DNA from: Candidatus Hydrogenedentota bacterium
Lineage (GTDB): Bacteria > Hydrogenedentota > Hydrogenedentia > Hydrogenedentales > JAEUWI01
Length of the DNA: 64,000 nucleotides
Reading direction: 5' to 3'
Assembly: GCA_019637335.1 (NCBI GenBank)
Contig: JAHBVV010000006.1
Span: 6,235-70,234, forward strand
The stretch's first letter is position 1, and each line of letters opens with the position of its first letter. A program made the position numbers and the translations under genes. The notes below the pieces were generated by a model. It made no database searches and was not told where the DNA came from. It was given only the letters and a program-made list of their open reading frames with translations. Below, piece by piece: positions 33,435-64,000 of this stretch.

Positions 33435-33494
33435 GCGATTGAACGCAATCTGAATTGTTTGAACCGCGAATGAACACGAATTGACGCGAATGAA
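33435..33494. repeat. Six degenerate 10-bp phased units
   Basis: The units are gcgattgaac / gcaatctgaa / ttgtttgaac / cgcgaatgaa / cacgaattga / cgcgaatgaa, so TGAA/TTGA recurs every 10 bp. The array lies 115-175 nt upstream of the 33609 start. Confidence 0.55.
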
Positions 33495-33608
33495 GAGAAG
33501 AAACACCGGGATTCTACCGGGACCTGTAGCGGATTACATTGCGGTAGGATCCGGCGGGGGCTCTGTTGTACACTGGCGGGCGAGAGCAGCATTTATGAAC
33601 AAGGCGGT

Positions 33609-36998: not shown

Positions 36999-37017
36999 CG
37001 CGCCGGGAGTAGATTGC

Positions 37018-38466
37018 ATGTACAAGCATCATGAATCTGGCTGTTCCTGCGGGTCCCGCGTGAGCCCCGCGCCGATGACCCGGCGCGACATGTTGCGCCG
37101 CTGCGCGAATGGATTCGGGGCGGTCGCCCTGTCGGCGTTGATGGCCGACAAGGCGTACGGCGCGGCGGAGAAGATGACCGCGCCGGGCCTGCCCCACTAC
37201 GCGGCGAAAGCGAAGCGCGTGGTGTTTCTCTATATGGACGGGGGCGTGTCGCAGGTGGACAGCTTCGATCCGAAGCCGCGCCTGACCGCCGAGAACGGCC
37301 AGCCCTTCGCCATGACTATGGAGCCGACCCAGTTCGACAACAACGGCTCGACGCTGGGAAGCCCCTGGGCCTTCAAGCGGTACGGCGAGAGCGGCGCGCC
37401 GGTTTCCGAGCTCTTTCCGCACATCGGGACGTGTGTGGACGACCTCGCCATTGTCCGGTCGATGGTGTCCAACTTCTCCGAGCACAACCAGGCCAACTAC
37501 TTCCTGCACACGGGACATGGCCTGGTGGGCCGCCCGTCGATGGGCGCGTGGACGCTCTACGGGCTGGGCAGCGAGAACCAGAACCTGCCCGGGTTCGTGG
37601 TGCTCAACGGCGGCCTGATCCCGTCGGGCGGCGTGGAGAATTTCGGCGCGGGCTTTCTGCCGGCGGCCTACCAGGCGTCGCTGTTCAAGGCCCAGGACCA
37701 CCCGCTGGCGAACATCGCCCCCGCCGAGGCCGCGCCGGGCGCGCAGCAGGCGCGCCTGAACCTGATGAATCGGCTGGACACGGCGGCGCTGGAACACCGG
37801 GGCCGGCTGGACGCGTTCGAGGCCGCCATCGCGAATTACGAGCTTGCCTACCGCATGCAGGTGACCGTGCCGGACCTGGTCGATTTGCGCGGTGAGTCCG
37901 ACGCCACGAAGCGGCTCTACGGGCTGGAGGCGGAATACGAGCACACCCGGGCCTACGGCATGCAGTGCCTGATCGCGCGGCGCCTGCTGGAGCGTGGCGT
38001 GCGCTTCATCGAGCTCACATGTCCGCCTATCGACGGCCAGGACCGCTGGGACGCGCACGGCGATCTGGTGAGCAACCACAGCCTGAACGCGAAGGCGGTG
38101 GACCAGCCGATCGCGGGCCTGATCAAGGATTTGAAGTGCCGCGGGATGCTGGAGGACACGCTGGTGGTCTGGGCGGGCGAGTTCGGGCGGACGCCGTTCG
38201 CGCAGGGGACCGTGGGCCGGGATCACAACCCCTTCGGCTTTACCATCTGGATGGCGGGCGGCGGCGTAAAGCCGGGCATCATCTACGGGGCCACGGACGA
38301 ATACGGCTACAAGGCCATCGAGAACAAGGTGGAGATCCACGACCTGCACGCGACCATGCTCCACCTGCTCGGCTTCGACCACACGAAACTTTCCTATCAT
38401 TACAGCGGCCGCGACATGCGCCTGACCGACGTGCACGGACACGTGGTGCACGATATTCTGTCGTGA
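37018..38466 (+). CDS. DUF1501 (sulfatase-fold) protein with TAT-type signal
   Basis: The ATG at 37018 follows GGGAG. MTRRDMLRRCANGFGAVALSALMA, LYMDGGVSQVDSFDPKP, WDAHGDL, GEFGRTP and RDHNPFGFTIWMAGGG are present. Confidence 0.88.
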   Translation: MYKHHESGCSCGSRVSPAPMTRRDMLRRCANGFGAVALSALMADKAYGAAEKMTAPGLPHYAAKAKRVVFLYMDGGVSQVDSFDPKPRLTAENGQPFAMTMEPTQFDNNGSTLGSPWAFKRYGESGAPVSELFPHIGTCVDDLAIVRSMVSNFSEHNQANYFLHTGHGLVGRPSMGAWTLYGLGSENQNLPGFVVLNGGLIPSGGVENFGAGFLPAAYQASLFKAQDHPLANIAPAEAAPGAQQARLNLMNRLDTAALEHRGRLDAFEAAIANYELAYRMQVTVPDLVDLRGESDATKRLYGLEAEYEHTRAYGMQCLIARRLLERGVRFIELTCPPIDGQDRWDAHGDLVSNHSLNAKAVDQPIAGLIKDLKCRGMLEDTLVVWAGEFGRTPFAQGTVGRDHNPFGFTIWMAGGGVKPGIIYGATDEYGYKAIENKVEIHDLHATMLHLLGFDHTKLSYHYSGRDMRLTDVHGHVVHDILS

Positions 38467-39400: not shown

Positions 39401-39780
39401 ACCGCGAAATTGCCCGAAAGCCGCCCGCGCGTGCAATTGAAGACCGGTGAACCACAACCGCACACGAATTGGGAAATGGTATCACGTTGGCGGAATGAAG
39501 CACCCACCGCCTTGGAGGCGATTCTCGGTCAAGACGGGCGTGAATAGCAGGATCGTGGACACTCCGCGGCAAAGCACGCTCAAATTCCAACGGGCACGAT
39601 GAACCGGAGCCGCGCACGCCGAGTACCAAGACTAACATCGCATCCCCGAAAGGCTTCCTCAGGGCCATACGCGTGCTTCCACACAGTGGCGCACCTTGCC
39701 GCGGACAAACGAAGACGCGCCGGAGGCGAGAATGTCCGCGATCCTTGGGCTCACGAGATGCCCTGCGCGACCACGGGAGC

Positions 39781-39921
39781 ATGGCGCCGAAGGAATTGTG
39801 GGCGGCCCTCGGCGTCTCGCGCCAGGGCGCGATGGACCTGCTCAATCCGCTGCTGGACGCCGGCCTCGTCGAGAAGGTCGGCGGAAAAAAGAGCGGGCGG
39901 TATGTGCTGCGGGGAAATTAG
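39781..39921 (+). pseudogene. Possible remnant of a winged-HTH C-terminus
   Basis: MAPKELWAALGVSRQGAMDLLNPLLDAGLVEKVGGKKSGRYVLR is only 46 aa. The surrounding 39401-40120 has no convincing ORF. Confidence 0.25.
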
Positions 39922-40099
39922 CGCGAGTTTGGCTTCTATTCCCGGTTCGGCTGCCGCAGTCAGGCGCCGTATTCTGCTCCGGTTCATCGGACCCGCTGGA
40001 GCAAGGCCAGTCTTAACGCAATCACGAACGCCCGCGATCCTTGGGGATCTGGCTCAAGCAATGGCCTGCGCGACTTCGAAGTCCGGATGGCGCCCCCAT

Positions 40100-40220
40100 G
40101 TGTACCCATGCCGCTTCCGCCCATACGTCCGCCCACGTACTCCTCCACCAGCTTTCGCTTGCCGTGCAACTCATGCGCCAGCGCCCGCAGTCTGATTTGG
40201 AGAAGCGGGGCGCAATTCAT
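40100..40220 (-). pseudogene. Relic copy of an ispG 3' end
   Basis: The minus-strand translation ...ALAHELHGKRKLVEEYVGG... parallels the real IspG C-terminus ...ELANQFRLLLEEYVGRTY. Nucleotides 40123-40147 match 42812-42837 at 25/26 with a 1-nt indel. Confidence 0.45.
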
Positions 40221-40259
40221 TGTATTGCAACGCGCATCGTTACGCGATACACTTAAGGC

Positions 40260-40538
40260 ATGCTACGAACGATACGGCACAAGGGAATTAAAAGGCTCGT
40301 CCAAAGAAACGATAGGAGCGGACTGAATGCCGAACAACTCCCCCGAATCGTTCGTGTGATTGCTCTGCTGGATCGGGCAACCACGCCCCAGGATTTGGAC
40401 ATCCCCGGGTATCACCTGCACCCCCTCCGGGGAGATTTACAGGGCTTCTGGTCGGTTCGGATAACGGGAAATTACCGCCTGATATTTCGCATGGAGAAGG
40501 GCGACGTGTTCGACATCGATCTGGTGGATTGCCATTAA
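40260..40538 (+). CDS. higB: HigB-type (RelE/ParE superfamily, plasmid-maintenance killer) toxin
   Basis: MLRTIRHKGIKRLVQRNDRSGLNAEQLPRIVRVIALLDRATTPQDLDIPGYHLHPLRGDLQGFWSVRITGNYRLIF. Confidence 0.85.
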   Translation: MLRTIRHKGIKRLVQRNDRSGLNAEQLPRIVRVIALLDRATTPQDLDIPGYHLHPLRGDLQGFWSVRITGNYRLIFRMEKGDVFDIDLVDCH

Positions 40539-40554
40539 TAAAGGATAAGCAGCG

Positions 40555-40845
40555 ATGAAAATCAATATGCCTCTCCCCCACCCTGGCGAAGTAATCAAAC
40601 ACGATTGCCTGGACGAATTGGGGCTGAATGTAACGGATGGGGCCAAGGTGTTGGGGGTAACACGAAACACACTTTCCCGGATCATCAACGGCCGCGCCGG
40701 CATATCGGCGGAAATGGCCATCCGGCTCGAAAAAGCCGGCTGGTCGAACGCCGATATGTGGTTGCGTCTCCAGGCGGCCTATGATCTGGCCGAGGCCCGA
40801 AAGCACGAGGACGAAATACACGTCGTGCGCTTCGAGATGGTGTAA
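40555..40845 (+). CDS. higA: HigA-type antitoxin (HTH_XRE)
   Basis: [71 protein letters not shown]; it starts 16 nt after higB. Confidence 0.88.
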
Positions 40846-41011
40846 GCGGGGTGTGACGGCAGCACGAACAGCAGTGATTGGAATGGCCCGCCAGTAAGAT
40901 GGTATCGTGATTCAGCAAGGGCGTCAGCGCGGGCGAATCCGCTTGATCACAGGCGATCAAGCGTACGAGGATCTGGGTGTACAAACCTGGCGCGCGGAGG
41001 ATAAGTAGCTA

Positions 41012-41254
41012 GTGCCGACCGTGTTGCGAAGCGGTCCATATCCCATCTACTTCTATAGCCATGAACCCAATGAGCCGCCGCATGTTCACGTTGACGGGAA
41101 CGATTTGTCGGCCAAGTTCTGGTTGCAGCCGGTTGGCCTCGCCCGGAACTTCGGCTTCTCGCCCAGAGATTTGCGGCGGCTTCAGAAACTGGTCATTCAA
41201 CATCAAACGGCATTCCTGGAGGCTTGGCATGGGCATCTTGGCGCTGACGGCTGA
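41012..41254 (+). CDS. DUF4160 domain protein
   Basis: The start is GTG. YFYSHEPNEPPHVHVDGNDLSAKFWL is the DUF4160 signature. Confidence 0.75.
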   Translation: MPTVLRSGPYPIYFYSHEPNEPPHVHVDGNDLSAKFWLQPVGLARNFGFSPRDLRRLQKLVIQHQTAFLEAWHGHLGADG

Positions 41255-41525
41255 CGAGCGCGTCACGGACGTAAAATTCGCAAGAGACACGTTGAGTGTG
41301 GCACTGCGGGACGGGCGGACCATCACCGTCCCGCTGGCCTGGTATCCGCGCTTGTTTAACGCGACAGCGGCCCAGCGGAAGAATTGGCAAGTCGCGGGTG
41401 GCGGCTACGGCATCCATTGGCCGGATCTTGATGAAGACTTGAGCACGGAGGGATTGCTTCGCGGCGCTCCGGCCCCATGCAGTCGCCAGCTTGGGGATGC
41501 GGATAACACGGGCCGCCGAGGCTGA
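41229..41525 (+). CDS. DUF2442 domain protein
   Basis: The internal ATG overlaps the DUF4160 gene by 26 nt. VTDVKFARDTLSVALRDGRTITVPLAWYPRL...GGGYGIHWPDLDEDL is present. Confidence 0.7.
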   Translation: MGILALTADERVTDVKFARDTLSVALRDGRTITVPLAWYPRLFNATAAQRKNWQVAGGGYGIHWPDLDEDLSTEGLLRGAPAPCSRQLGDADNTGRRG

Positions 41526-41684
41526 CGCCCACCCACCCGGTTTCCCTCCGATCAATAGGGAGCTGATGGAACGCTACGGGAGCATCGGAAAGTCCATCAG
41601 GCGCCTTATTCCGCTCCGTGGTGGGAGAACACCTGTCTTATCGGCGTTCCGGCGCTGCCGGGCTGAAAGAATGGATCAACGAAA

Positions 41685-41939
41685 ATGGCGATTCCCGACG
41701 ATATCGACGCAGAAAAACTCGCCGAAGCGGCCCTGGCGATACTCTGTTTGACCGCCTTTCAGGATGACCCCGTCATGCGCGCCTGGAAAGGGATGGACTG
41801 GGACCTCATGGACATGCTCTATGAGCGCGGCTGGATACGAGACCCGAAGGGCAAAGCAAAGTCCGTGGTCCTGACCGAAGAAGGCCTCGCAAAAGCCGAA
41901 CACTTCCTCCAACGGCACTTCGCAAAGGACGCGGTTTGA
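41685..41939 (+). CDS. Small conserved hypothetical protein (DUF6429-like, from memory)
   Basis: The 84-aa sequence AWKGMDWDLMDMLYERGWIRDPKGKAKSVVLTEEGLAKAEHFLQRHF has ordinary composition. Confidence 0.55.
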   Translation: MAIPDDIDAEKLAEAALAILCLTAFQDDPVMRAWKGMDWDLMDMLYERGWIRDPKGKAKSVVLTEEGLAKAEHFLQRHFAKDAV

Positions 41940-41999
41940 AGCGGCATCGAACAAGGGAGCGGTCGTGGGACGCTGCTCCAGCGCAAGCCGTTATACAAC

Positions 42000-42404
42000 G
42001 TGGAGAAGGGGATGCACCCAGACATTCTGAGGTACAACGAACAGCAAGCGCCTGACCACAAGGATGTATGCGGTGTGCTTGCCCGTGAAATCGATCGAAA
42101 TCTGCCCGAGGCTGAGAATAAGATCTGGCACGCCCATCCGGTCTGGTTTCTGGAAGGCAATCCGACGGTCGGATACAGCAAGCAGAAACCGGGGATACGA
42201 TTGATGTTCTGGAGCGGGGCGGATTTTGAAGAAAAGGGGTTGAGCGTAGTAGGCAAGAAATTCAAGGATGCGTCGATTTTTTACAACAACGTATTGGAAA
42301 TCGACAAGAGCGATCTACAGCGCTGGCTGGAGAAGGCCAGGGAGATTCAATGGGACTACCGGAACCTGGTTAAGCGGAAAGGCCAGCTTGAGCGACTGAA
42401 GTGA
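42000..42404 (+). CDS. DUF1801 (YdhG-like) domain protein
   Basis: IWHAHPVWFLEGNPTVGYSKQKPGIRLMFWSG...KFKDASIFYNNVLEIDKSDLQRWLEKA is present. An alternative ATG exists at 42012. Confidence 0.65.
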   Translation: MEKGMHPDILRYNEQQAPDHKDVCGVLAREIDRNLPEAENKIWHAHPVWFLEGNPTVGYSKQKPGIRLMFWSGADFEEKGLSVVGKKFKDASIFYNNVLEIDKSDLQRWLEKAREIQWDYRNLVKRKGQLERLK

Positions 42405-42503
42405 TGGGAGACGACTTGCTGCTGCTGCACGAAACGTATGGGCGGCGACTCTTGGGCCTTTCCGCCTTCGAAGGTGTTGCACCGGGCGATAGCCCACTCA
42501 GTG

Positions 42504-42776
42504 CTACTCCGCTGTTCCATTCGCCTTGAGCGGAAAGCGTTCGGGATGTTCTATGATTTCTTCCGTCAGATCGATGTCGATATCAGGCCAATGGAAGTGT
42601 CCCGGTGACACTTCGACCACATTGATGATAGCTTCCACGGGCTGGCGCTTGAACCAGGGGAAGTCCTGGTAGGACATGAACAGTTCCCTACCGCGCGCCC
42701 GTATCCAGACACCATGGGCCGAAATATTGGTGATCTCAACCGCCAAAGTGCTGTTGCCATGCGGCGACAAGCTCAT
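42504..42776 (-). CDS. DUF2442 domain protein (second copy, solo)
   Basis: VEITNISAHGVWIRARGRELFMSYQDFPWFKRQPVEAIINVVEVSPGHFHWPDIDIDL; its start is 23 nt downstream of the ispG stop. Confidence 0.7.
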   Translation of the reverse strand: MSLSPHGNSTLAVEITNISAHGVWIRARGRELFMSYQDFPWFKRQPVEAIINVVEVSPGHFHWPDIDIDLTEEIIEHPERFPLKANGTAE

Positions 42777-49056: not shown

Positions 49057-49401
49057 TCAGACGTCGAATACCTTCGGCGGCCGGGCGTACCACAGGTTCA
49101 GGTCGGCGCGATCATCCAGCGTGACCGCGCCAAGCCGGATCGTGTAGGATTCTTCGCCGTCGCACTGGTAGCGGATTTCCCCGCCCAGGATCTCCCAGTC
49201 GCCCGATTCCGGGCCGCTGAGAATGAGCGTGTGCGGGAAGCTCTGGGGATGCCCCGTCGCCTCCAGCGTCTCGCCCGGGCCCGTCCCGCCCTTCTGCTCG
49301 TCAAAGTCCAGCGGGAAGCCGTTGATGGTGTATTGGGGAACGCCGCCCGGACCCGCCTCGCCGGTCCGGAGCACCACGTGAAACGTATCGAGTCGCGGCA
49401 T
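49057..49401 (-). CDS. Hypothetical small protein (114 aa)
   Basis: Ordinary composition and placement between operon genes support it. I have no confident family; it looks vaguely PLAT/beta-sandwich-like. Confidence 0.5.
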   Translation of the reverse strand: MPRLDTFHVVLRTGEAGPGGVPQYTINGFPLDFDEQKGGTGPGETLEATGHPQSFPHTLILSGPESGDWEILGGEIRYQCDGEESYTIRLGAVTLDDRADLNLWYARPPKVFDV

Positions 49402-49404
49402 CGC

Positions 49405-50184
49405 CTACATCCCCATCCCGGCGGGTAGTTCACTGAAATACGGATTCGTGCCCGACAGGTGATCGGTCTCGTCGAGCAGCGCCCCGAGTTCGGGGACCGC
49501 CTGCCGGAACGCCCCTTCCACGCCGGATCGCAGCGTGATCGTCGACGCCGCGCAGCCCTGGCAGCCGCCGCCCATCGTGATGTACGCCGTGTTGCCCGTC
49601 ACGCGGTTGAGGGTGATTACCCCCGAGTGCGACGCAATCCCGGGATTGATCTCCTCGTCGATGACCCGTTGCAGCCGCGTGCGGATCTCGTCTTCACTCG
49701 GAATCGAGTCCTGGTACGCCGGATCCAGCACCGGCAGACCGCTCTGGAGGTGCGCGCGGATCTGTTCCGCCACCTTCTTCGCGAATTCCTCCCACGGGCT
49801 GAAATCGCTTCCATCCCGCGTCACCGTCACCGTCATGTCGTGGATAAGCACCGTGCCGATACCGCCCAGATCAAACAGGGACGCCGCCAGCGGCGACGCG
49901 GCATACGCCGTGTCCGCCTCCGGCGCCCAGAACGACATCCGCGTAAGCAGCGGGCGGTCAACTAGCAGGATACACGCGTTCGCGCGCGGTTCAAGCCGCG
50001 CCTTGATGGCGATCTGGTCGCCGGGCACGCGAGATCCGCCTTCCGCCGCGATCACCGGCGCGCTCACCACGCGGCGCGGCGCCGGCATCGGCTCATCGTC
50101 GTCCAGCTCGGCGACGGCATCCGAAACCGCCGCCGGCGCCTCGTCGGCATCCGTATTAAACACCTTGGAAAACCAGGATGGCAT
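49405..50184 (-). CDS. NifU/Nfu family Fe-S cluster carrier (Nfu_N + NifU C-terminal CxxC domain)
   Basis: IHDMTVTVTRDG...EINPGIASHSGVITLNRVTGNTAYITMGGGCQGCAASTITLRSGVE follows an acidic N-terminal tail. Confidence 0.85.
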   Translation of the reverse strand: MPSWFSKVFNTDADEAPAAVSDAVAELDDDEPMPAPRRVVSAPVIAAEGGSRVPGDQIAIKARLEPRANACILLVDRPLLTRMSFWAPEADTAYAASPLAASLFDLGGIGTVLIHDMTVTVTRDGSDFSPWEEFAKKVAEQIRAHLQSGLPVLDPAYQDSIPSEDEIRTRLQRVIDEEINPGIASHSGVITLNRVTGNTAYITMGGGCQGCAASTITLRSGVEGAFRQAVPELGALLDETDHLSGTNPYFSELPAGMGM

Positions 50185-50223
50185 GGAAATTACCTCCGGT
50201 ACATTGGAGAATTAGTAATACTC

Positions 50224-50432
50224 TAGCCGTCTGAAGTAAGGCGTTCGCCGATACGAGAGATGCCTTACTTACACGGGATGTCTTCGTCATTCCCGCGAAG
50301 GCGGGAATCCAGAGGGTTTGCAAGGTTAACGTTGCATGTTCTCTGGATCCCCACTTTTGTGGGGATGACGGTGTTCGGTCACCGAGAGCCGCCACCGTTG
50401 GGTGCGACGAGGGTGACTACTTCAGACGGCTA
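50224..50432. repeat. 209-nt multi-hairpin palindromic element bounded by a perfect 15-bp inverted repeat (MITE-like or structured RNA)
   Basis: The outer arms are TAGCCGTCTGAAGTA (50224-50238) and TACTTCAGACGGCTA (50418-50432). Inner stems are at 50235-42/50262-69, 50289-96/50301-08 (ATTCCC-N8-GGGAAT), 50309-14/50341-46 and 50347-54/50359-66. The segment is lower in GC. Confidence 0.8.
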
Positions 50433-50508
50433 AAAAATAACGAAAATTACAGGTCATTGACCTCATAAAGAAAGAACAACGCCGAGACCCCATCCATTCC
50501 CCTTGTGG

Positions 50509-50979
50509 TCACTGGTTCGCGCACCAGGCAAAGAGATTGGCCCACTCTTCCTGTTGCTTGCGCACCACATCCCGCGGATTCGCCGGCCGCGCCGCCGCCA
50601 CCTCGTCCACCAGCGCGTGCCCGTCATAGCCCGGCAACGCCGCCATCGCTGGATGTTGGCCCGCCCGGTTAAACCAGTAGTGGCTGTTCGAAAAATCGCC
50701 CTCGCGACGGTGCATAATCCCGTGCCAGTACGAACCCGTATCGTCCTTCAGCGTCTGGCTGATCTCGTGGCTGAGGTCGAGCTCGTCGATGTAGAGCCAA
50801 AGCGCCGACTGCAACGGAAGATTCTCCGCAATTGGCGGTTCTTTTATTATTTTGCGCACAATCGCCTTCAGTTCATCCGGCGCGCCCTTCCGGGGCGCCA
50901 ATTCGGTCATCGCCTCGTCGAGCGGCAGCGCATCGAACAGGGGTTGTACGGCCTGGGCGATAGGATCGGGCAGATCCAT
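50509..50979 (-). CDS. Conserved hypothetical protein (156 aa)
   Basis: Composition is ordinary, e.g. SYWHGIMHRREGDFSNSHYWFNRAG. I cannot name a family. Confidence 0.6.
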   Translation of the reverse strand: MDLPDPIAQAVQPLFDALPLDEAMTELAPRKGAPDELKAIVRKIIKEPPIAENLPLQSALWLYIDELDLSHEISQTLKDDTGSYWHGIMHRREGDFSNSHYWFNRAGQHPAMAALPGYDGHALVDEVAAARPANPRDVVRKQQEEWANLFAWCANQ

Positions 50980-51150
50980 AGTGCGCCTCCTTCCTGTCTA
51001 CGGGAACATTCCCTTCCAAACCGCGCATTTTACCCCAGCCAGACCGCCCCGGCCAAACCGGAAGTAGTCTCCAACGCCGCGCAAAGGTTGCACCGCGCGG
51101 CCGTATCGTGGTATCTTCTTACAGCGATGGCGCTTGCGCCATGCCCCGTT

Positions 51151-51241
51151 GGAGAGATGACCGAGTGGCCGAAGGTGGCGCCCTGCTAAGGCGTTGTGCG
51201 ACAAAATCGTACCGAGGGTTCGAATCCCTCTCTCTCCGCCA
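51151..51241 (+). tRNA. tRNA-Ser (anticodon GCT), CCA encoded
   Basis: The acceptor stem is GGAGAGA/TCTCTCC. The anticodon stem GCGCC/GGCGT carries the loop CT-GCT-AA. There is a long variable arm (GTGCGA-CAAA-ATCGTAC) and a T arm GAGGG-TTCGAAT-CCCTC, then discriminator G and CCA. Confidence 0.95.
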
Positions 51242-55125: not shown

Positions 55126-55836
55126 GGCTGGTGCTCTCCCTGATGATGAAATGAACGAAAATACGCTCCAGGGGCAGGCGCCACGCCGAACCCCACGGCG
55201 CATTCCGAATACCCCTATTAGGCCCCGTTTCCAGGTCTGTTGGCAAATACAACATCCACCCCCATCACCACCAAAGGATCGCGGGCATTCCCGCGACAGA
55301 AACCGCCCCGACTCACACAACACCGCCCCCCCTAATCCACCCCACCCGCGCCACGTGATGGCCCAACAAGGGACGTACCGCCGCACCGAAGCGACGCACA
55401 ACAAAGCGAACCCCGCGTCAAACCGATCCCCCCGGCCCAATGGTCAGCCGCCATAGCGCGGGGGTACGTCCCGGCCCGTGTCGCCCAGACCCCGCCGCGT
55501 CAACACAGGAGACCCGGCCATCGACGAAAACGAAACCCCAACCCACCCCAGCCAATACCACCCCACACGAGCGCTTCCATCCCTCCCCATCAACACCACC
55601 CGCCCCCACCTGGCTCCCCTCCTGCAAGCCCATGCGACTGGCCTTCTTACGCCGATCGGTGCTATGATAACGAACTTTGTCATGAGGCGAATTCGAGTTC
55701 GACGACGCGCACCGGCCGCGCGCCGAACGGGGTGATTGCTGGAACGGCCCGCAATGCCCGCCCAATACACCCATAAGCCATTTTGCAACAGTACGTTACC
55801 GAGCCGCCTGGCGTCGGCCAGCTTGTGAGATTCTGG

Positions 55837-57495
55837 ATGCCGCTGATTACCCAGGAGAAAACCGAAGCGTCCCGGCAAACGGGCGCCCACTGGGGCGGTG
55901 TGCCCGCGGATGCCCCCACGCTCCCCCTGGCCGCCCCCGAATTCACCGCGCTCCTTCAGGACACCGCGCGCCCTTTCGTCCTCGTGCGCCTGCCCGATGG
56001 CGCCCTGGCCGCCACTCGCTCCCTGCCGGATCCCGGTCTGAACGGTGACGCCCTGCCCGCCGTGGCCCTGGGCCTGCCCGTGCGCGCCGCGCAGCTGGGC
56101 GATCCAACCTTCCGTTACGACTACGGCGTGAAATTCGCCTACTACGGCGGCGCCATGGCCAACGGCATCGCCTCCGAAGAACTCGTGGAAGCCCTCGCGA
56201 ACGCCGGCCTCCTGGGCATCTTCGGGGCCGCCGGCCTCGCCCTGGATCGCGTCACGCAGGCCATCGATCGCCTCCAGACCACCCTCGGCGACCTCCCCTT
56301 CGGCTGCAATCTCATCCACAGCCCCAATGAGCAGGACCTCGAAGCCGCCGTAGTGCAACTTTACCTCGACAAAGGCGTCCGACTCGCCGAGGCTTCCGCC
56401 TTTCTCGACCTGACGCCCCACGTGGTCCGCTATCGCGTTCACGGCATCCACGAGGACGAAAACGGCGCCGTCGTAACGCCGAACCGTCTCATCGCGAAGG
56501 TCTCGCGCGTCGAAGTGGCGACCAAGTTCCTTTCTCCCCCGCCCTTCGCCATTTTGGAAAAGCTCGTGGCGGCGGGACACATCACGGGACGCCAGGCGCA
56601 ACTGGCCGCGCGCATTCCCATGTGCGACGATCTCACCGCGGAAGCGGATTCCGGCGGCCACACGGACAACCGCCCCGCAATCGCCCTGCTCCCCGCCATG
56701 ATCGCCCTGCGTGACCGCATCCAGGCGGAATATGCCTACGCCAAAGCACCGCGCGTCGGCCTGGCCGGCGGCATTTCCACCCCCCACGCCGCCGCCGCCG
56801 CATTCGCCATGGGCGCGGCCTTCGTGGTGACCGGCACCGTGAACCAGGCCTGCGTCGAAAGCGGCTCGTCCGACATCGTGCGCCAGATGCTCGCCGAAGC
56901 CGAACAGGCCGACACCGCCATGGCGCCCGCCGCCGACATGTTCGAAATGGGCGTCGAAGTGCAGGTCCTCAAGCGCGGGACAATGTTCAGCATGCGCGCC
57001 GCGAAACTCTACGAGCTCTACCGGCACCACAAGAGCATCGAAGAATTGCCCGTCGCCGAGCGCGATAAACTCGAGAAGCAGTATTTCCGCAAGAGCATCG
57101 CGGAGGAGTGGGCTTCGACAAAGGCGTTCTTCGCCGAACGCGATCCGAAGCAGTTGGTCCGCGCCGAACAGGACCCACGCCACAAGATGGCGCTCCTTTT
57201 CCGTTCCTATCTCGGCCAGGCTTCCATCTGGGCCAATCGCGGCGATGCCTCCCGCAAAATCGATTACCAGGTCTGGTGCGGCCCCGCCATGGGCGCGTTT
57301 AACGAGTGGGTGCGCGGCTCCTTTCTTGAAGACCCGAAACGCCGCGAAGTCGCCACGGTTGTGCTGAATATTCTCCACGGCGCGGCGGTAGTCCAGCGAT
57401 ACACCAGCCTCACGAGCCAGGGCGTGCCCCTCCCAAGCGTATGCGGGCAATACCGGCCCCTGGACCGTTCCCAACTGGAGGAAGTAGTACAGTGA
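55837..57495 (+). CDS. pfaD: PfaD-family enoyl reductase (nitronate-monooxygenase-like TIM barrel) of a PUFA/secondary-lipid synthase
   Basis: FRYDYGVKFAYYGGAMANGIASEELVEALANAGLLGIFGAAGL...CNLIHSPNEQDLE...LTAEADSGGHTD are present. The start is uncertain: ATG 55837 is preferred over the track's TTG at 55783. Confidence 0.85.
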   Translation: MPLITQEKTEASRQTGAHWGGVPADAPTLPLAAPEFTALLQDTARPFVLVRLPDGALAATRSLPDPGLNGDALPAVALGLPVRAAQLGDPTFRYDYGVKFAYYGGAMANGIASEELVEALANAGLLGIFGAAGLALDRVTQAIDRLQTTLGDLPFGCNLIHSPNEQDLEAAVVQLYLDKGVRLAEASAFLDLTPHVVRYRVHGIHEDENGAVVTPNRLIAKVSRVEVATKFLSPPPFAILEKLVAAGHITGRQAQLAARIPMCDDLTAEADSGGHTDNRPAIALLPAMIALRDRIQAEYAYAKAPRVGLAGGISTPHAAAAAFAMGAAFVVTGTVNQACVESGSSDIVRQMLAEAEQADTAMAPAADMFEMGVEVQVLKRGTMFSMRAAKLYELYRHHKSIEELPVAERDKLEKQYFRKSIAEEWASTKAFFAERDPKQLVRAEQDPRHKMALLFRSYLGQASIWANRGDASRKIDYQVWCGPAMGAFNEWVRGSFLEDPKRREVATVVLNILHGAAVVQRYTSLTSQGVPLPSVCGQYRPLDRSQLEEVVQ

Positions 57496-60400
57496 CAACC
57501 CGTCCAAATTCCCCCGCCCCCGCGGATATCGCGATCGTGGGCCTGGGCTGCCTCTTCCCAAGGGCCAACCACCTGGGCGCCTTCTGGGCGAACATCAAGC
57601 ACGGTGTGGACGCCATTATCGAAACCCCCGAGACGCACTGGCGGCCCGAAGACTACTACGACGCCGACCCCAAACGCCCCGACTTCACCTATGGCAGGCG
57701 CGGCGGCTTCCTGGAGCCCATCGACTTCAATCCGCTCGACTACGGCATGCCCCCCAACACGCTGGAAGCCACCGACACCGCGCAGCTCCTGGGCATGGTG
57801 GCCGCCGAGCGCGCCCTCCAGGATGCGGGCTATGGCAAGGACCTCGACTTCGATCGCGACCGCGTCAGCGTCGTACTCGGCGTCACGGGCGCCCTCGAAC
57901 TGGTCATTCCCCTCGGCGCGCGCCTGGGTCACCCGAAGTGGCGCGAGGCCATGACCGATGCCGGCCTCGACCGAGAAACAATAGAAGATGTCCTCGGCCG
58001 CATGGCGGATCAGTACGTCCCCTGGCAGGAAGCCTCGTTCCCCGGTCTTCTGGGCAACGTGGTCGCCGGCCGCATCACCAAGCACCTCAACCTCGGCGGC
58101 ACGAACTGCGTCGTGGACGCCGCGTGCGCCAGCTCCCTGAGCGCGGTCCACCTCGCGATGCTGGAGCTCCAATCCGGCAAGAGCGATGTCGTCCTCTCGG
58201 GCGGCGTGGACACCTTCAACGACATCTTCATGTTCATGTGCTTCAGCAAGACGCCCGCCCTTTCGCCCACGGGCGACGCAAAGCCCTTCGACGCGAATGG
58301 CGATGGCACCATCCTCGGCGAAGGACTCGGCATGGTGGTGTTGAAGCGCCTGGCCGACGCCGAGCGCGACAACGACCGCATCTACGCCGTCATCAAGGGC
58401 ATTGGCGCCTCCAGCGACGGCAAGGGCGACGCCATCTACGCCCCGAGCGCGCCCGGCCAGGTGAAAGCCCTCCGGCGCGCCTACGAACAGGCCCAGATCG
58501 ACCCGCACACCATCGAACTGGTCGAGGCGCACGGCACCGGAACCGCCAAGGGCGACGCGGTCGAGATCAGCGCGCTCTCCCAGGTCTACGGCGCCTCCGA
58601 AACCGGCCCCTGGTGCGCCATCGGCTCCGTGAAGTCGCAAATCGGCCACACCAAGGCCGCCGCGGGTTCCGCCGCCCTGATCAAAGCCACCCTGGCGCTC
58701 TACAACAAGGTGCTCCCCCCCACCATCAAGGTGAAGCAACCCCTGGCGCCCCTCCGCGAAGCCCAGACGCCGTTCTACGTCAACACCACCCTGCGTCCCT
58801 GGCTCCCGCGCGAGGCGCACCCCCGCCGGGCGGCACTCAGCGCCCTCGGCTTCGGCGGCAGCAACTTCCACTGCGTCCTCGAAGAGCACGGCGCGGAAAA
58901 GCCGGCCCCCGACTGGGATGGGACCGTGGAATTGCTCGCGTTTTCCGGCGCCGGCGCGGACGATCTCTCCCGCGCGCTGGACGCCTTCCCCGCGAACGGG
59001 TCCTGGGCCGAGGCGCAGCTCGCCGCACGTCAGCTTCGCGCGGATTTCGACGCCGCCGCGCCGTGCCGCTTGCTCATCGTTGCGCAGCAACACGAAACGG
59101 ATCTCGGGAAGCTCATCGCGCAGGCGAAGTCCACCCTCGCAAGCAAGGGAACCAGCGCCGCCTGGACCCTCCCGACCGGCATATTTTTTGGTTACGGCGC
59201 CGCCCCCGGTAAGCTGGCCTTCGTCTTTCCCGGCCAGGGCACGCAATACACCGGCATGCTCCGCGATCTCGCGTGCCAGTTTCCGGAATTCCTCGATGTG
59301 CTCGCGCGCGCCAATGCCGTCTACGGCGGCGAAACTGCGCGCCTGAGCGACCGCATCTACCCCGTGCCCGCGTTCTCGCCGGAGGACGAGGCGGAGCAGA
59401 TGAAGGCCCTCACGGCCACCGCGGTCGCCCCGTCCGCCATCGGAACCGTCAGCGCGGGCGCCCTGCGTGTCGTGGAGCGCTTCGGTATCGCGCCCGACGC
59501 CATCGCCGGACACAGCTACGGCGAGATCGTGGGCCTCCTCGCTTCGGGCAAGGTCGATGAGGACGCCTTTCACCGACTCTCCAAACTGCGCGGCGCCCTC
59601 ATGGGCCAGGGCGAGGGCGACAAGGGCGCCATGATGGCCGTCCGCGCGCTCGAGGCCGACGCCGAGGCTATCATCCGCGAGGAAAACCTCGACGACGTTA
59701 TCATCGCCAACAAGAACGCCCCGGAGCAGATGGTGCTGGCGGGCGGTACGGAAGCCATCGCCCGCGCGGACAAAGCCTTCGCCGCGCGCGGCGTTCAGAC
59801 CAAGATTCTCCCCGTCGCCGCGGCCTTCCATAGCCGCTTTGTGTCCCACGTCCGCGACCCCTTCCTGGACGCGCTGCGCAAGATGGATCTACGCGAAGGT
59901 GACGTCACCCTCTATTCCAACACCCTCGCCGCGCCCTATCCGGCGGATCGTGAGGCGGCGGAAGTCCTGATCGCCGAGCAACTGGCGAAGCCGGTGGCCT
60001 TCGTGGATCAGATCCGCCGCATGCGTGACGACGGCGTGCATACCTTCTTCGAGATCGGGCCGGGGTCGCGAATGTCGGGCCTGATCGGCGCCATCCTCGA
60101 CGATACGCCCCACCGCGCCGTGGCCGTGGACAGTTCCGGTGGCAAGCGCGACGGCGTTGCCGACCTGGCGCGCGCCCTTGCGGAGCTCGCCGCCCTGGGC
60201 CACCGCGTGGACCTGGCGGCCTGGAACGACGGTTGCCGGATCGATCCGGCCGCGCTGCGCCCCAAAGCCAAACTCAGCGTGCCCCTCTGCGGCGCCAACC
60301 ATGTCACCCCGCGCGCAAAAAAACCAAAGGCCGCGCCGCGCCCCGCCGTGCAGGCGGCGGCCCACGCCCAGCCCTCGGACAACCCCATGCCTTCAAGTAC

Positions 60401-63400
60401 CGCATCCCAAACACCGCCGACACCGGCCCCGCAGAGCGTTGCGCCCGCCGCGTCGTCCCACCCCATGGAACAGCACCTGATCGCCCTGCAGCGCATGCAG
60501 CAGCAGACCGCCGAACTGCACCGCCAGTTCCTGGAGGGCCAGCAGGCCGCCATGGAGACCTTCCGCGCGCTCCTGCTTGGCCACACGCCGGACGCCGCAA
60601 GCCCCGCGCAGCCGGCCAGGACCACGCCCGCGCCAGCCGTGCCGGTGGCGCCCCCGTCACCCGTCGCATCCACCGTTCCGGCCTCGGTCCCCTCCCACGC
60701 GCCCGAAGCGCCATCCGCCCAGTCGATTCCGTCCGCCGCCCCCGTGGTCGCGGATACAAGCCGCATTGAGGCCGCCCTGCTCGCCACGATCGCGGAAAAA
60801 ACCGGCTACCCCGCCGACATGCTGGAACTCACCATGTCCCTCGACGCGGACCTGGGCATCGACTCCATCAAGCGCGTGGAAATCCTCTCCGCCCTGAAGG
60901 AACGCCTCCCCGAGGCCCCCGAATTCGGTCCCGACCAGTTAGGCCAGTTCCACAGCCTCGGCGACATCGTTTCCTACATCGGCGCGAACACGTCTTCCGC
61001 TTCCGCGCTCTCCCAGGCATCGAACGCGACCGCGGCCGACAGCAGCCACATCGAGGCCGCCCTGCTCGCCACCATCGCGGAGAAGACCGGCTATCCCGCC
61101 GACATGCTCGAACTCTCGATGGCCCTTGACGCGGACCTCGGCATCGATTCCATCAAACGCGTCGAAATCCTCTCCGCCCTGAAGGAACGCCTCCCCGAGG
61201 CCCCCGAGTTTGGTCCCGACCAGCTCGGCCAGTTCCACAGCCTCGGCGACATTGTGGCCTACATCGGCGCGAACACCGCGTCGGCAACAGCGCCACCGGC
61301 CCCGTCCGATCTTCGCCCCGCGCCCGCCGGGGCCGACACCAGCCAGATCGAAACGGCTCTGCTGCAAGTGATCGACGAGAAGACCGGCTACCCTTCCGAC
61401 ATGCTCGAACTCTCGATGTCCCTCGACGCGGACCTCGGCATCGATTCTATCAAGCGCGTGGAAATCCTCTCCGCCCTGAAGGAGAAACTCCCGATCACCC
61501 CGGAATTCGGCCCCGATCAACTCGGCCAGTTCCACACCCTCGGCGACATCGTGGCCTACATCGCCGCCAGCGCACCGTCCGCACCCGCGTCCGCTTCGAT
61601 GGCCCCGTCCGCGCCGGCACCTGACAACGGCCAGGTAGAAGCCGCGCTCCTCGCCACCATCGCGGAGAAGACTGGCTACCCGGCCGACATGCTCGAACTC
61701 ACCATGGCGCTCGACGCCGACCTCGGCATCGACTCCATCAAGCGCGTGGAGATCCTCTCCGCATTGCGGGAGAAACTCCCGAACATCCCGGAATTCGGAC
61801 CCGACCAACTCGGCCAGTTCCAGACCCTCGGCGATATTGTGGCCTACATCGGCACGGGCGCCAGCGCGCCAGCCGCTCCGTCCGCGTCCCAGGAACTTCC
61901 GTCGGCGCCAGCCGCCGCCCCGGCGGGCGACCCGCTCTCCGTTGCCGCCCTCGAAGCTTTCGACTTCGAACTGGGCGCGCCTGCATCCCTGCCCGCGAAC
62001 GGGACCGTCCTGCTGGTGGCCTCGGGGGATCCGCTCGACGCCACCCTGGCCGACGCCCTGCATGCCCGGGGTTTCACCACCCACACCGTACCCTGGGACA
62101 GCGATCCCGCCTCCGCCGGCGTCAACACCCCCGTGGGACTCGTGCTCGTCGCCCCGGCGGGCCCCTGTCCCGAGGGCTATGTCCCCCGGGCCTTCGACTG
62201 GATTCAGGCGATCGGCGCGCACATGCAGCGGGCCGAAAACGCGTTCCTCGCCACGGTCACCCAGATCGACGGCGCCTTCGGTCTGAACCAGGCCGGTGAG
62301 AACGCCGAATCCGGCGCGCTCGCGGGGCTCCTCAAGACCGCCGCGCAGGAATGGCCCAGCCTCCACGGCCGCGCGCTCGACATCGCCGCCGGAACCGCGC
62401 CGGAACGCCTCGTCGAAGCGATGCTCGCCGAAGGGCCGGTCGAAATCGGCGTCTCCCCGGACCGCTTCTGCACCCTGCGCCTCCAGCCGCTGGACGTACC
62501 GACCGCCGAAACAGACCCCGTCCAGCTGGGCGAGGTCGTCGTGATCAGCGGCGGCGCGCGCGGCGTGACGGCCGACGTCGCGCTCGCAATGGCGCGGGCC
62601 TGGAAACCCACCCTCGTGCTCCTGGGCCGAAGCGACGCCCCCGCCCCGGAGGAGGCCTGGCTCCAGCCGCTGCAATCCGAACAGGAAATCCAGCAGGCCC
62701 TCATTCAACAGGCCGGCGGCGCCCTGAAACCGAAGGAATTGCGCGATCGCCTGAACGCGATTCTCCGTAACCGCGCCGCGCTCCGCAATATCGAAGCCAT
62801 GGAGGCCGCCGGAGCCGCCGTGGAGTACTTCGCCGCCGATATCCGCGATCGCGACGCCATCGTGGATCTGCTGGACGAAGTCCGCGGCGAGTACGGCCCG
62901 ATTCGCGGCATTGTCCACGGCGCCGGCGTACTGGCGGACCGCCTCATCGCCGACAAGACCCCGGAACAGTTTGATCGCGTCTACGGGACAAAGGTCGACG
63001 GCCTGCGCGCCCTTCTGGCCGGGGCCGCTTCGGATGACCTGCGCTTCATCGTCTGCTTCTCCTCCTCCACGGGGCGATTCGGGCGAAAGGGCCAGGTTGA
63101 CTACGCCGCGGCCAACGAGGCCCTCAACAAGTGCGCCCGCCGCGAGGCCCAGGCCCGCCCGGACTGCCGCGTCCTGTCCGTCAATTGGGGACCCTGGGCC
63201 GGCGGCATGGTCACCGACGATCTCGCCCGGCTTTTCAAGGCCGAGGGCGTCGGTCTCATTGGCCTGGAGGATGGCGCGCGTTACCTGGTCGACGAATTGC
63301 GCCAGCCCGCGCCGCGTCCGGTCGAGGTGGTGGTGATGGGCGGCGCCATCCCCGAGTTTAACGAAATACCGAAACCCGCCGCGCCAGCCCGCAAGACCGC

Positions 63401-64000
63401 CGCGCCCGCCGCGAAACCCGCCATCGAGGTCGACCTGAGCGTGGAAGCCTTTCCCTTTCTGCGCTCGCACGTCCTGAGCAACAAGGCCGTGCTCCCCGTT
63501 GCCATGATCACGGAATGGTTCGCCCATACCGCGCTCCACGCCCACCCCGGCCTCCGATTCCACGGTTTCGACAGCCTGCGCGTCTTCAAGGGCGTCACCC
63601 TCGACGCGAACGAACGCGTGCGTCTCGCCCTCTGCACGGGCGACATGCTCCGCACCCCGGACGGCTACGCGGTCCCGGTGGAGCTTCGGAGCAATCCGAG
63701 CGGCGACAAGGAAATCCTGCACGCCGCCGCGGAAATCCACCTGGCGGACGCCCTCCCCTCGGCGGAGGCCCGCATCAAGCCGGCGAATCTCCGGAAGAAG
63801 GCCTACAACAACGGTGGCCTCTACGAGGGAGGCCACCTCTTCCACGGACCGGCCTTCCAGGGGCTCCACGCGGTCGACGGCGCCGCCAACGACATCATCG
63901 CGGCCCTCGTGGGCCGCGCCCCGGCCCCGAAAGAGTGGATTGTCAGCCCGCTGCGCAACACCTGGCTCGCCGACCCCCTCATTCTCGACAGCAGCTTCCA
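57492..64000 (+). CDS. pfaA: PfaA-type multidomain synthase: KS - MAT - 4x ACP - KR - DH(partial), 3'-partial (runs off window end)
   Basis: This ORF is not in the ORF track. The frame is open from the GTG at 57492, which overlaps the pfaD TGA, to nt 64000. Hand translation gives VTTRPNSPAPADIAIVGLGCLFP, VVDAACASSLSAV (Cys codon 58125), VEAHGTGT and GSVKSQIGHTKAAAG. It also gives IAGHSYGEIVG (Ser codon 59514), four LGIDSIKRVEILSAL repeats, VVISGGARGVTADVA, and FPFLRSHVLSNKAVLPVAM. Confidence 0.9.
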   Translation, partial: MTTRPNSPAPADIAIVGLGCLFPRANHLGAFWANIKHGVDAIIETPETHWRPEDYYDADPKRPDFTYGRRGGFLEPIDFNPLDYGMPPNTLEATDTAQLLGMVAAERALQDAGYGKDLDFDRDRVSVVLGVTGALELVIPLGARLGHPKWREAMTDAGLDRETIEDVLGRMADQYVPWQEASFPGLLGNVVAGRITKHLNLGGTNCVVDAACASSLSAVHLAMLELQSGKSDVVLSGGVDTFNDIFMFMCFSKTPALSPTGDAKPFDANGDGTILGEGLGMVVLKRLADAERDNDRIYAVIKGIGASSDGKGDAIYAPSAPGQVKALRRAYEQAQIDPHTIELVEAHGTGTAKGDAVEISALSQVYGASETGPWCAIGSVKSQIGHTKAAAGSAALIKATLALYNKVLPPTIKVKQPLAPLREAQTPFYVNTTLRPWLPREAHPRRAALSALGFGGSNFHCVLEEHGAEKPAPDWDGTVELLAFSGAGADDLSRALDAFPANGSWAEAQLAARQLRADFDAAAPCRLLIVAQQHETDLGKLIAQAKSTLASKGTSAAWTLPTGIFFGYGAAPGKLAFVFPGQGTQYTGMLRDLACQFPEFLDVLARANAVYGGETARLSDRIYPVPAFSPEDEAEQMKALTATAVAPSAIGTVSAGALRVVERFGIAPDAIAGHSYGEIVGLLASGKVDEDAFHRLSKLRGALMGQGEGDKGAMMAVRALEADAEAIIREENLDDVIIANKNAPEQMVLAGGTEAIARADKAFAARGVQTKILPVAAAFHSRFVSHVRDPFLDALRKMDLREGDVTLYSNTLAAPYPADREAAEVLIAEQLAKPVAFVDQIRRMRDDGVHTFFEIGPGSRMSGLIGAILDDTPHRAVAVDSSGGKRDGVADLARALAELAALGHRVDLAAWNDGCRIDPAALRPKAKLSVPLCGANHVTPRAKKPKAAPRPAVQAAAHAQPSDNPMPSSTASQTPPTPAPQSVAPAASSHPMEQHLIALQRMQQQTAELHRQFLEGQQAAMETFRALLLGHTPDAASPAQPARTTPAPAVPVAPPSPVASTVPASVPSHAPEAPSAQSIPSAAPVVADTSRIEAALLATIAEKTGYPADMLELTMSLDADLGIDSIKRVEILSALKERLPEAPEFGPDQLGQFHSLGDIVSYIGANTSSASALSQASNATAADSSHIEAALLATIAEKTGYPADMLELSMALDADLGIDSIKRVEILSALKERLPEAPEFGPDQLGQFHSLGDIVAYIGANTASATAPPAPSDLRPAPAGADTSQIETALLQVIDEKTGYPSDMLELSMSLDADLGIDSIKRVEILSALKEKLPITPEFGPDQLGQFHTLGDIVAYIAASAPSAPASASMAPSAPAPDNGQVEAALLATIAEKTGYPADMLELTMALDADLGIDSIKRVEILSALREKLPNIPEFGPDQLGQFQTLGDIVAYIGTGASAPAAPSASQELPSAPAAAPAGDPLSVAALEAFDFELGAPASLPANGTVLLVASGDPLDATLADALHARGFTTHTVPWDSDPASAGVNTPVGLVLVAPAGPCPEGYVPRAFDWIQAIGAHMQRAENAFLATVTQIDGAFGLNQAGENAESGALAGLLKTAAQEWPSLHGRALDIAAGTAPERLVEAMLAEGPVEIGVSPDRFCTLRLQPLDVPTAETDPVQLGEVVVISGGARGVTADVALAMARAWKPTLVLLGRSDAPAPEEAWLQPLQSEQEIQQALIQQAGGALKPKELRDRLNAILRNRAALRNIEAMEAAGAAVEYFAADIRDRDAIVDLLDEVRGEYGPIRGIVHGAGVLADRLIADKTPEQFDRVYGTKVDGLRALLAGAASDDLRFIVCFSSSTGRFGRKGQVDYAAANEALNKCARREAQARPDCRVLSVNWGPWAGGMVTDDLARLFKAEGVGLIGLEDGARYLVDELRQPAPRPVEVVVMGGAIPEFNEIPKPAAPARKTAAPAAKPAIEVDLSVEAFPFLRSHVLSNKAVLPVAMITEWFAHTALHAHPGLRFHGFDSLRVFKGVTLDANERVRLALCTGDMLRTPDGYAVPVELRSNPSGDKEILHAAAEIHLADALPSAEARIKPANLRKKAYNNGGLYEGGHLFHGPAFQGLHAVDGAANDIIAALVGRAPAPKEWIVSPLRNTWLADPLILDSSF
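60765..61853 (+). repeat. Four tandem in-frame ACP-coding repeats (units start 60765, 61050, 61347, 61635; 285-297 bp)
   Basis: Near-identical DNA blocks recur, e.g. ggctaccc.gccgacatgctcgaactc...ctcggcatcgattccatcaa.cgcgt.gaaatcctctccgccctgaag. Ala/Pro/Ser-rich linkers separate them. Confidence 0.9.

Follow-up and report, generated by a model that had tools for sequence, protein, structure and literature searches.

Among the insertion sequences (IS) of the IS66 family, ISDge4 of the ISBst12 group has a single open reading frame (ORF) of 449 amino acids, the terminal inverted repeat (TIR) GTAACTGCTCAGCA and an 8-bp direct repeat (PMC12898284); 8-bp repeats are also described for IS66 members of Paracoccus (PMC3281130). 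Repetitive extragenic palindromic (REP) sequences of the CGTC-1 type consist of a CGTC tag, an 8-bp stem starting with AT, a 4-nt loop and a CCA tail; they correspond to the Neisseria repeat dRS3 and the Rickettsia repeat RPE-6 and occur mostly as head-to-head dimers (PMC3733652). Such dimers can be part of larger units: in Halothiobacillus neapolitanus CGTC-1 dimers lie in 41-bp palindromes, and in Anabaena variabilis GTAG-15 dimers lie in palindromes of the form TATAGGA...TCCTATA (PMC3733652). The NTS, a hairpin of the same type, is the 28-nt single-stranded DNA (ssDNA) target of the GIY-YIG nuclease SsnA, NTS-like motifs are found across phyla, and the arrangement NTS-ssnA-NTS looks like an IS (PMC11893778). 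Here we analysed a stretch of 64,000 nt from contig JAHBVV010000006.1 of a Candidatus Hydrogenedentota bacterium (assembly GCA_019637335.1), called the window in the following. We conclude, with a probability of about 85%, that its element at 50215-50441 is one copy of a 227-bp miniature inverted-repeat transposable element (MITE) of the IS66 family (ISBst12-like, i.e., related to single-ORF elements) with the TIR GTAAYACTYTAGCCGTCTGAAGTA, and that this MITE carries a dimer of CGTC-1 REPs.

The ends of the element are set by TIRs of 24 bp. A previous reading of the same DNA from the sequence only (the sequence-only reading) had described an inverted repeat, TAGCCGTCTGAAGTA, with two perfect 15-bp arms (50224-50238 and 50418-50432) that enclose 179 nt. 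This repeat is real, but the true ends are located at 50215 and 50441 and not at 50224 and 50432. In the Logan contigs matching starts at 50215 on the left side, and other copies read ...GGCTAAAGTGTTAC on the right side and then diverge, which together suggests the 24-bp terminal repeat. In the window copy the right TIR is perfect over its inner 15 bp but degenerate, with 4 mismatches, over its outer 9 bp; the right terminus of this copy is AAATAAC, whereas the loose ends of mapped contigs show GTGTTAC in other copies. The lower GC content pointed out before was confirmed (53% in the element, 65% in the window). The element has no coding capacity, as the only ORF (50156-50395) is spurious, and it is present in a single copy within the window. 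Its predicted folding is far above that of shuffled sequences on both strands (z = -8.4 and -9.4).

The 24-mer connects the element with the IS66 family. Used alone as a query, it was found at 28 metagenome loci, which share nothing but the TIR with the window. The loci L054 and L057 are elements of 1531 bp with this TIR at both ends, each with one ORF of 470-480 amino acids matching DDE_Tnp_IS66 (E = 1.8e-44) and zf-IS66, and in one metagenome the identical IS end stands beside differing flanks in eight contigs. Further TIR loci are MITEs of 181-184 and 208 bp. A perfect 8-bp target site duplication (TSD) flanks the 184-bp MITE of L039 (GATCTGCC), the 208-bp MITE of L052 (CTTTGTTC) and a 175-bp MITE in a Thermoguttaceae metagenome-assembled genome (MAG; L007, TCAATTCT); an 8-bp TSD was also looked for in L040, L043, L048 and L050, where none was found. 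L007 and a related TIR in a Planctomycetaceae MAG (L008) are the genuine cases among 23 matches of a 17-mer (inner TIR plus AGG) in genome contigs, the other 21 being chance matches. In total, at least four other MITE families from metagenomes and Planctomycetota MAGs end in the same 24-mer.

In the window copy 7 of 8 flanking bases are identical, at exactly the positions predicted from the related MITEs; we estimate the chance of such an agreement at ~4e-4 for equal base frequencies. Judged by these comparisons, the element combines a TIR starting with GTAA, matching that of IS with an IS66 transposase, with an 8-bp TSD that is preserved at 7 of 8 positions. It shares the TIR start GTAAC and the 8-bp target duplication with ISBst12-group elements such as ISDge4, and the autonomous relatives conform to this group in their length of ~1.5 kb and in their one ORF of ~450-480 amino acids with DDE_Tnp_IS66 and zf-IS66. 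In contrast to these IS, the window element is non-coding, measures only 227 bp, has an interior unrelated to the IS ends and carries a REP dimer.

The region is present in sludge, digester and marine metagenome runs (X numbers in the following). In each run about 100-200 Logan contigs match the element and end within it, as do the host contigs. The summed contig depth reaches 200-450 over the arms compared with 5-8 in the flanks, whereas individual contigs of the element are as deep as the host flanks (~7 in X1, ~5 in X3 and 13-17 in X21). The outer flanks of the element contigs, visible as loose ends, mutually disagree, which points to tens of copies scattered through the same population. 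The element is a small, non-coding unit, and by contig depth and loose ends it has many copies in unrelated flanks. A MITE had been one of several options in the sequence-only reading, and this option is borne out by the TIRs, the TSD and the multi-copy state. Mapping of the sludge runs X1, X3 and X6 to L054:700-2400 showed a contig with an exact copy of the 22-nt TIR at its start and with patches of IS66 transposase; its length is 1555 nt, or 2380 nt in X6. This contig probably represents a collapsed IS from the sludge community that belongs to the same group, and it is a candidate autonomous partner of the MITE.

Several observations weigh against this assignment. No second full copy of the family is at hand as sequence, and copy number, consensus and ends come from contig summaries. 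The TSD is 7/8 rather than perfect, the right terminus has its 4 mismatches, and the two complete IS copies (L054, L057) are without TSD. In addition, the parent IS is not placed in the host genome: the depth of the 1555-nt contig is 1.5-3.7x that of the host across runs, and the contig is not assignable to the host. The arms beyond the TIR show no similarity to the IS ends, so that an origin by internal deletion of that IS is not demonstrated. Finally, the only empty site found, in L030, the corresponding locus of a relative labelled Hydrogenedentiales_JAEUWI01, is too diverged to be aligned base by base, with a local score no better than that of shuffles.

Searches for further relatives of the arms were negative. 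The TIR plus 7 internal bases had no match in the metagenome collection, which therefore lacks the MITE family to which the window copy belongs. The TIR with GCCGTCTGAA was not found in the plasmid set (blastn) or in viral contigs, a 19-mer of the left arm had no match in viral contigs, and a protein search with three concatenated reading frames of the element for spurious ORFs on other copies gave no match.

The centre of the element (50285-50370) had been described as an imperfect palindrome with a dRS3 pattern. Both descriptions hold: the core consists of 43+43 nt with 74% complementarity and two perfect 8-bp hairpins, and ATTCCC-N8-GGGAAT occurs once in the window, at 50289-50308. The peptide WIPAFAGMT, taken before as a familiar translation of such repeats, is indeed read over hairpin 1 by the spurious minus-strand ORF. 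The dRS3 call can be sharpened, as the core is a head-to-head heterodimer of CGTC-1 REPs with a 32-nt spacer, i.e., an NTS/SRM element. The published NTS consensus of 28 nt, CGTCATTCCCGCGMAVGCGGGAATCYRG (PMC11893778), was used as a regular expression over the window, and the sole match was 50285-50312 (REP 1 plus G50312), an exact NTS 28-mer; hairpin 2 matches neither this consensus nor the degenerate expression for SRM. Both hairpins, 50285-50311 on the plus and 50344-50370 on the minus strand, agree with the CGTC-1 definition, and the stem of REP 2 differs from that of REP 1 by compensatory changes.

The dimer is also found in Azospirillum and Sphingopyxis (blastn against plasmids). In the alignment with these dimers the homology ends exactly at CGTCAT...ATGACG and the 32-nt spacer is not conserved, whereas the asymmetry ATTCCC.../ATCCCC... 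is also seen in the alphaproteobacterial dimers. The end of the homology at the CGTC tags and the common asymmetry show that the core is a discrete and widely shared unit. The hairpin alone (50280-50319) reaches a depth of ~2700 in the metagenome contigs and is therefore common in many other community members. With the known CGTC-1 dimers (dRS3, NTS/SRM, RPE-6) the core shares tag, stem, loop and tail, the outward orientation of the tags and the difference between the partners; unlike them, it has been seen in this host solely as the cargo of a MITE bounded by TIRs. The host phylum lies outside the five listed for CGTC REPs in 2013 (PMC3733652). A crude regular expression for GIY-YIG proteins, which is a weak test, had no match in the window.

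Some occurrences of these repeats in other genomes were noted as well. On plasmid AZO_p4 of Azospirillum lipoferum 4B (L024:301-385) the same CGTC-1 dimer lies in frame within the annotated rbbA and adds 28 residues, RHPREGGDPGNSATKALNRVDSRLRGND, in a linker, like the Rickettsia palindromic elements. The Sphingopyxis copy lies inside the annotated ileS. An exact 28-nt NTS, CGTCATTCCCGCGAAGGCGGGAATCCAG, is present at L012:180-207 in a Thermodesulfovibrionales MAG (Nitrospirota-type), a locus retrieved by one of the chance matches of the 17-mer.

The dimer measures 86 bp and stands between arms of 70 and 71 nt, and the MITE without it would have 141 bp. When the MITE without dimer was folded, the insertion point was outside the predicted loops, and a loop-targeted insertion is therefore unsupported. 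As in the H. neapolitanus and Anabaena variabilis composites, a REP dimer lies in the middle of a longer inverted repeat and the composite is the repeated unit. However, the outer element has a transposase family and target duplications here, whereas the published cases are unassigned. The following course of events would account for the locus. An IS66-family DDE transposase, supplied in trans, would bind both TIRs and integrate the element, duplicating 8 bp of the target (GAGAATTA/GAAAATTA in the present case); the site of insertion is the T-rich tail behind a gene for a 156-amino acid protein, 30 nt upstream of nfuA. The CGTC-1 heterodimer would have been nested between the two arms before the amplification to tens of copies, and the dimer, whose hairpins are of the kind recognised as ssDNA by Ssn GIY-YIG nucleases, would now travel as cargo.

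The published composites also lend weight to a different order of things, in which the unit is REPIN- or BIME-like and was spread by an ssDNA-acting enzyme on the CGTC/NTS hairpins (an Ssn-type GIY-YIG nuclease or a HUH transposase), the outer repeats being a mere target. Longer palindromes with REP dimers nested in them have been described for CGTC-1 and GTAG-15 (PMC3733652), NTS-ssnA-NTS resembles an IS (PMC11893778), and the two arms around the dimer differ by a single nucleotide in length. However, the unit ends at GTAA termini with 8-bp TSDs, which is the signature of a DDE transposase and not of hairpin-directed ssDNA transposition. The same termini are found on transposase-coding IS and on four MITE families, and none of these MITE and IS copies contains a CGTC-1 hairpin. 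In addition, free CGTC-1 hairpins are absent from the rest of the window and from 20.8 kb of the L030 relative, and among the mapped contigs there are no joints that skip the core, the arm running continuously into it. A spread by way of the hairpins is thus unlikely, and the continuity of arm and core in the contigs indicates that the dimer was most likely acquired once and that the composite was amplified afterwards. An IS630/mariner-type MITE whose arms have 13 bp and are flanked by a duplicated TA, as considered in the sequence-only reading, can hardly be right. The dinucleotide TA does stand on both sides of GCCGTCTGAAGTA, but it is internal to the 24-bp TIR, within the conserved TTTAGCC, and is no target duplication; the family homology runs 9 bp past TA on both sides, the TSDs have 8 bp, and the autonomous relatives encode IS66 and not IS630 transposases. 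An assembly chimera or a misjoin at the repeat had also been suspected, and in all runs short-read contigs do end within the element. Nevertheless, the left junction is spanned by contigs covering 49400-50253 (X1, X3) and 49952-50312 (X17) and by L027-L029 from three further runs, and the right junction by contigs covering 50405-50965 (X1), 50407-50786 (X2), 50400-51180 (X6) and 50383-50502 (X21). As both junctions were obtained in independent studies, chimerism is practically excluded; the flanks also carry the matching 8-bp TSD, and the gene order across the site is that of L030. L027-L029 belong to a relative with an NfuA protein 95% identical to that of the window; they have the left half of the element in the corresponding place, 91% identical in nucleotides.

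The most tempting alternative concerns the 10-mer GCCGTCTGAA, the canonical DNA uptake sequence (DUS) of Neisseria, which occurs exactly twice in the window, once per arm. The two copies could form an inverted DUS pair that is functional or Neisseria-derived, either acquired from Neisseriaceae or exploiting DUS-dependent uptake. The 10-mer is exact in both arms, the same element contains an exact NTS, which is also a Neisseria repeat with a link to transformation, and by our own estimate the a priori chance of the 10-mer in an element of ~230 bp is ~4e-4. The element also shares with the Correia/NEMIS repeats and DUS pairs of Neisseria that it is a small intergenic palindromic repeat with an inverted 10-mer pair adjoining a gene start. 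In Neisseria the DUS is found roughly once per kb. In contrast, the 64 kb contain just the two matches inside the element at a shuffle expectation of 0.29, the two count as one event because both are arms of one repeat, and there is no DUS in the other 63.8 kb. The 10-mer corresponds to TIR positions 12-21 and is thus embedded in a TIR common to IS66-transposase elements of Planctomycetota-like and further environmental genomes. It is broken in 8 of the 9 partner TIRs in which the search did not force it (GCCATCTGAA, GCCAAATGAA, GCCGATTGAA, GCCGTCGGAA and others) and also in the orthologous copy L027, which reads TTCAGGCGGC. Its 12-mer context, TAGCCGTCTGAA, is not the AT-DUS form. When the element was compared by blastn with two complete N. 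gonorrhoeae chromosomes contained in the plasmid set, the NTS hairpin was the sole match and the arms gave none, and hairpins of the NTS type are widespread outside Neisseria (PMC11893778, PMC3733652). Compared with the inverted DUS pairs of Neisseria, the arms are 179 nt apart here and form no terminator hairpin. The Correia TIR is TATAGCGGATTA...; neither this TIR nor the TA duplication of Correia elements is present. The exact 10-mer is accompanied neither by over-representation nor by conservation among copies, and the host is Hydrogenedentota-like and no member of the Neisseriaceae. A functional or Neisseria-derived pair is therefore very unlikely, and on the sequence evidence the DUS match is almost certainly coincidental and would have no uptake function here.

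Table 1. Coordinates in the window of the IS66-type MITE, its parts and the neighbouring features.
Feature	Position	Strand	Basis or remark
Whole MITE, 227 bp	50215..50441	.	contig match starts, depth jump, shorter spacer in L030
Left TSD copy, 8 bp, GAGAATTA	50207..50214	.	adjoins GTAA end; 7/8 identity to 50442-50449
Left TIR, 24 bp, GTAATACTCTAGCCGTCTGAAGTA, DUS 10-mer at 50226-50235	50215..50238	+	pattern GTAAYACTYTAGCCGTCTGAAGTA exact at 28 metagenome loci
Left-arm hairpin, 9-bp stem AAGTAAGGC / GCCTTACTT	50234..50270	.	inverted-repeat search
CGTC-1 REP 1: CGTC tag, 8-bp stem ATTCCCGC, loop GAAG, tail CCA	50285..50311	+	NTS regular expression
REP-dimer spacer, 32 nt, complementary ends GAG...CTC, small internal stem-loop	50312..50343	.	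sequence, inverted repeats, fold
CGTC-1 REP 2, inverted: CGTC, ATCCCCAC, AAAA, GTGGGGAT, CCA	50344..50370	-	
Right-arm hairpin region, outer stem GTCACC / GGTGAC	50378..50417	.	predicted folds
Right TIR, reverse complement GTTATTTTTTAGCCGTCTGAAGTA, DUS 10-mer at 50421-50430	50418..50441	-	
Right TSD copy, GAAAATTA	50442..50449	.	7/8 bases identical to 50207-50214
nfuA-like gene, Nfu_N and NifU domains, start codon 30 nt from element end, GGAGG at 50193-50197	49405..50184	-	
ORF of 156 amino acids, no known family, upstream of nfuA	50509..50979	-	
Terminator-like hairpin of the 156-amino acid gene, belonging to the host and not to the element	50451..50463	-	terminator-like site scan

The IS66-type MITE is inserted in the T-rich tail of the terminator-like hairpin behind the 156-amino acid gene. 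This hairpin is the 13-bp palindrome AGGTCATTGACCT, which had already been seen in the sequence-only reading and was confirmed at 50451-50463. FapA and NYN genes are located further upstream, and a tRNA-Ser(GCT) is present at 51151-51241. Without the element and one TSD copy the minus strand reads AGGTCAATGACCTGTAATTYTCCAATG, leaving a spacer of 89 nt with, in this order, the terminator-like hairpin AGGTCAATGACCT, TAATTYTC and the ribosome-binding site of nfuA. L030 has the same gene order (NYN-FapA-156aa-NfuA-114aa-Pterin_4a-150aa), and its spacer of 105 nt contains a terminator but not the element, whereas the spacer in the window has 324 nt. An apparent similarity of the L030 spacer to the left arm in a MAFFT alignment was rejected. 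No relatives at 75%-95% were found, and there is therefore no base-exact empty site. The copy is shared with relatives of 94-97% identity, which together with the decayed right terminus indicates that it is old and probably immobile.

Independent of its origin as a MITE, and compatible with it, the element might now act as RNA on nfuA, i.e., as a 5'-leader hairpin, insulator or terminator; we regard this as a rather doubtful possibility. The element lies on the sense strand between the terminator-like hairpin of the 156-amino acid gene and the Shine-Dalgarno sequence of nfuA, its sense strand has a predicted fold of -100 kcal/mol (z = -8.4), and the insertion was kept in the relatives of 94-97% identity. 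However, both strands fold equally well, as expected of DNA palindromes, and the orthologous copy is 91% identical, which is no better than neutral intergenic DNA. The contig 49952-50312 from an RNA-type library joins nfuA to the element, but its depth is as low as that of the neighbouring DNA, so that it may be DNA carry-over and transcription is not established by it. The element belongs to no Rfam family: at the gathering score only a tRNA was found in the window, and the best sub-threshold hit was a spurious miRNA model with 27 bits compared with the 105 required. A promoter scan gave no sigma-70-like site in the element, and no T-run follows the element on the sense strand.

Two observations were made next to the insertion site. 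In the 94%-identical marine relative of run X21 an extra palindrome (CAGCCCGTTGCAAAA / TTTTGCAACGGGCTG) is present at 50502-50507, just past the stop codon of the 156-amino acid gene; it resembles either a terminator hairpin of another kind or a further small insertion. The tRNA-Ser(GCT) has a summed contig depth of hundreds to thousands in every run, which is due to its conservation across taxa, and it breaks the short-read contigs there.

The genomic context had been called PVC-like (Planctomycetes-Verrucomicrobia-Chlamydiae), which was a near miss. Candidatus Hydrogenedentes MAGs contain the closest named homologues of NfuA, the synteny is that of the Hydrogenedentiales locus L030, and NCBI places this phylum in the FCB (Fibrobacteres-Chlorobi-Bacteroidetes) group; an exact look-up of the NfuA protein returned no identical record. 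The part that stands is that domain families of the planctomycete type do occur in the window. The region 33474-38463 contains a PSCyt1-PSCyt2-PSD1 gene and, behind it, a DUF1501 gene, here in a Hydrogenedentota-related genome. This pair is usually taken as a hallmark of Planctomycetota.

Two other regions of the window stand out. The region 39500-42700 has a GC content of 56-59% compared with 65% and contains short ORFs, including DUF2442 (41013-41522), DUF1801 (41940-42401) and several without family; a small island of foreign origin or a cluster of the toxin-antitoxin type is possible. A locus resembling polyunsaturated fatty acid (PUFA) synthases covers 55777-64000, with an enoyl-reductase-type gene (NMO/FabD-helical-insert) and then a multidomain ORF of more than 2200 amino acids (KS-AT-4xACP-KR) that runs past the window end.

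The element is of an ordinary kind, but it represents a new family with a mildly interesting cargo. The TIR GTAAYACTYTAGCCGTCTGAAGTA marks an IS66-family group that had not been recorded before and has at least five MITE families. This group ranges over Planctomycetota-like and Hydrogenedentota-like bacteria from sludge, sediments and marine samples, and it visibly fragments short-read metagenome assemblies. A tempting false lead is removed as well, as a famous 10-mer can be a mere transposon end. Locally, the ribosome-binding site of nfuA is set apart from a terminator by the insertion, and the expression of this Fe-S assembly gene may be changed.

The locus is a clean natural example of CGTC/NTS dimers inside a MITE of the DDE-transposase type and bears on the question how CGTC REPs are dispersed. 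We know of no dedicated transposase for CGTC/NTS hairpins. A DDE transposase would therefore have spread potential sites of ssDNA cleavage by Ssn, and we tentatively consider it a slim chance that the dimers exist in this genome essentially only as cargo of IS66 MITEs and that tens of potential Ssn sites were spread in this way through a phylum from which they had not been known. If this is true and the host also encodes Ssn, every copy of the MITE would provide a programmed site of ssDNA cutting, and a selfish element would be coupled to the control of recombination or of incoming DNA.

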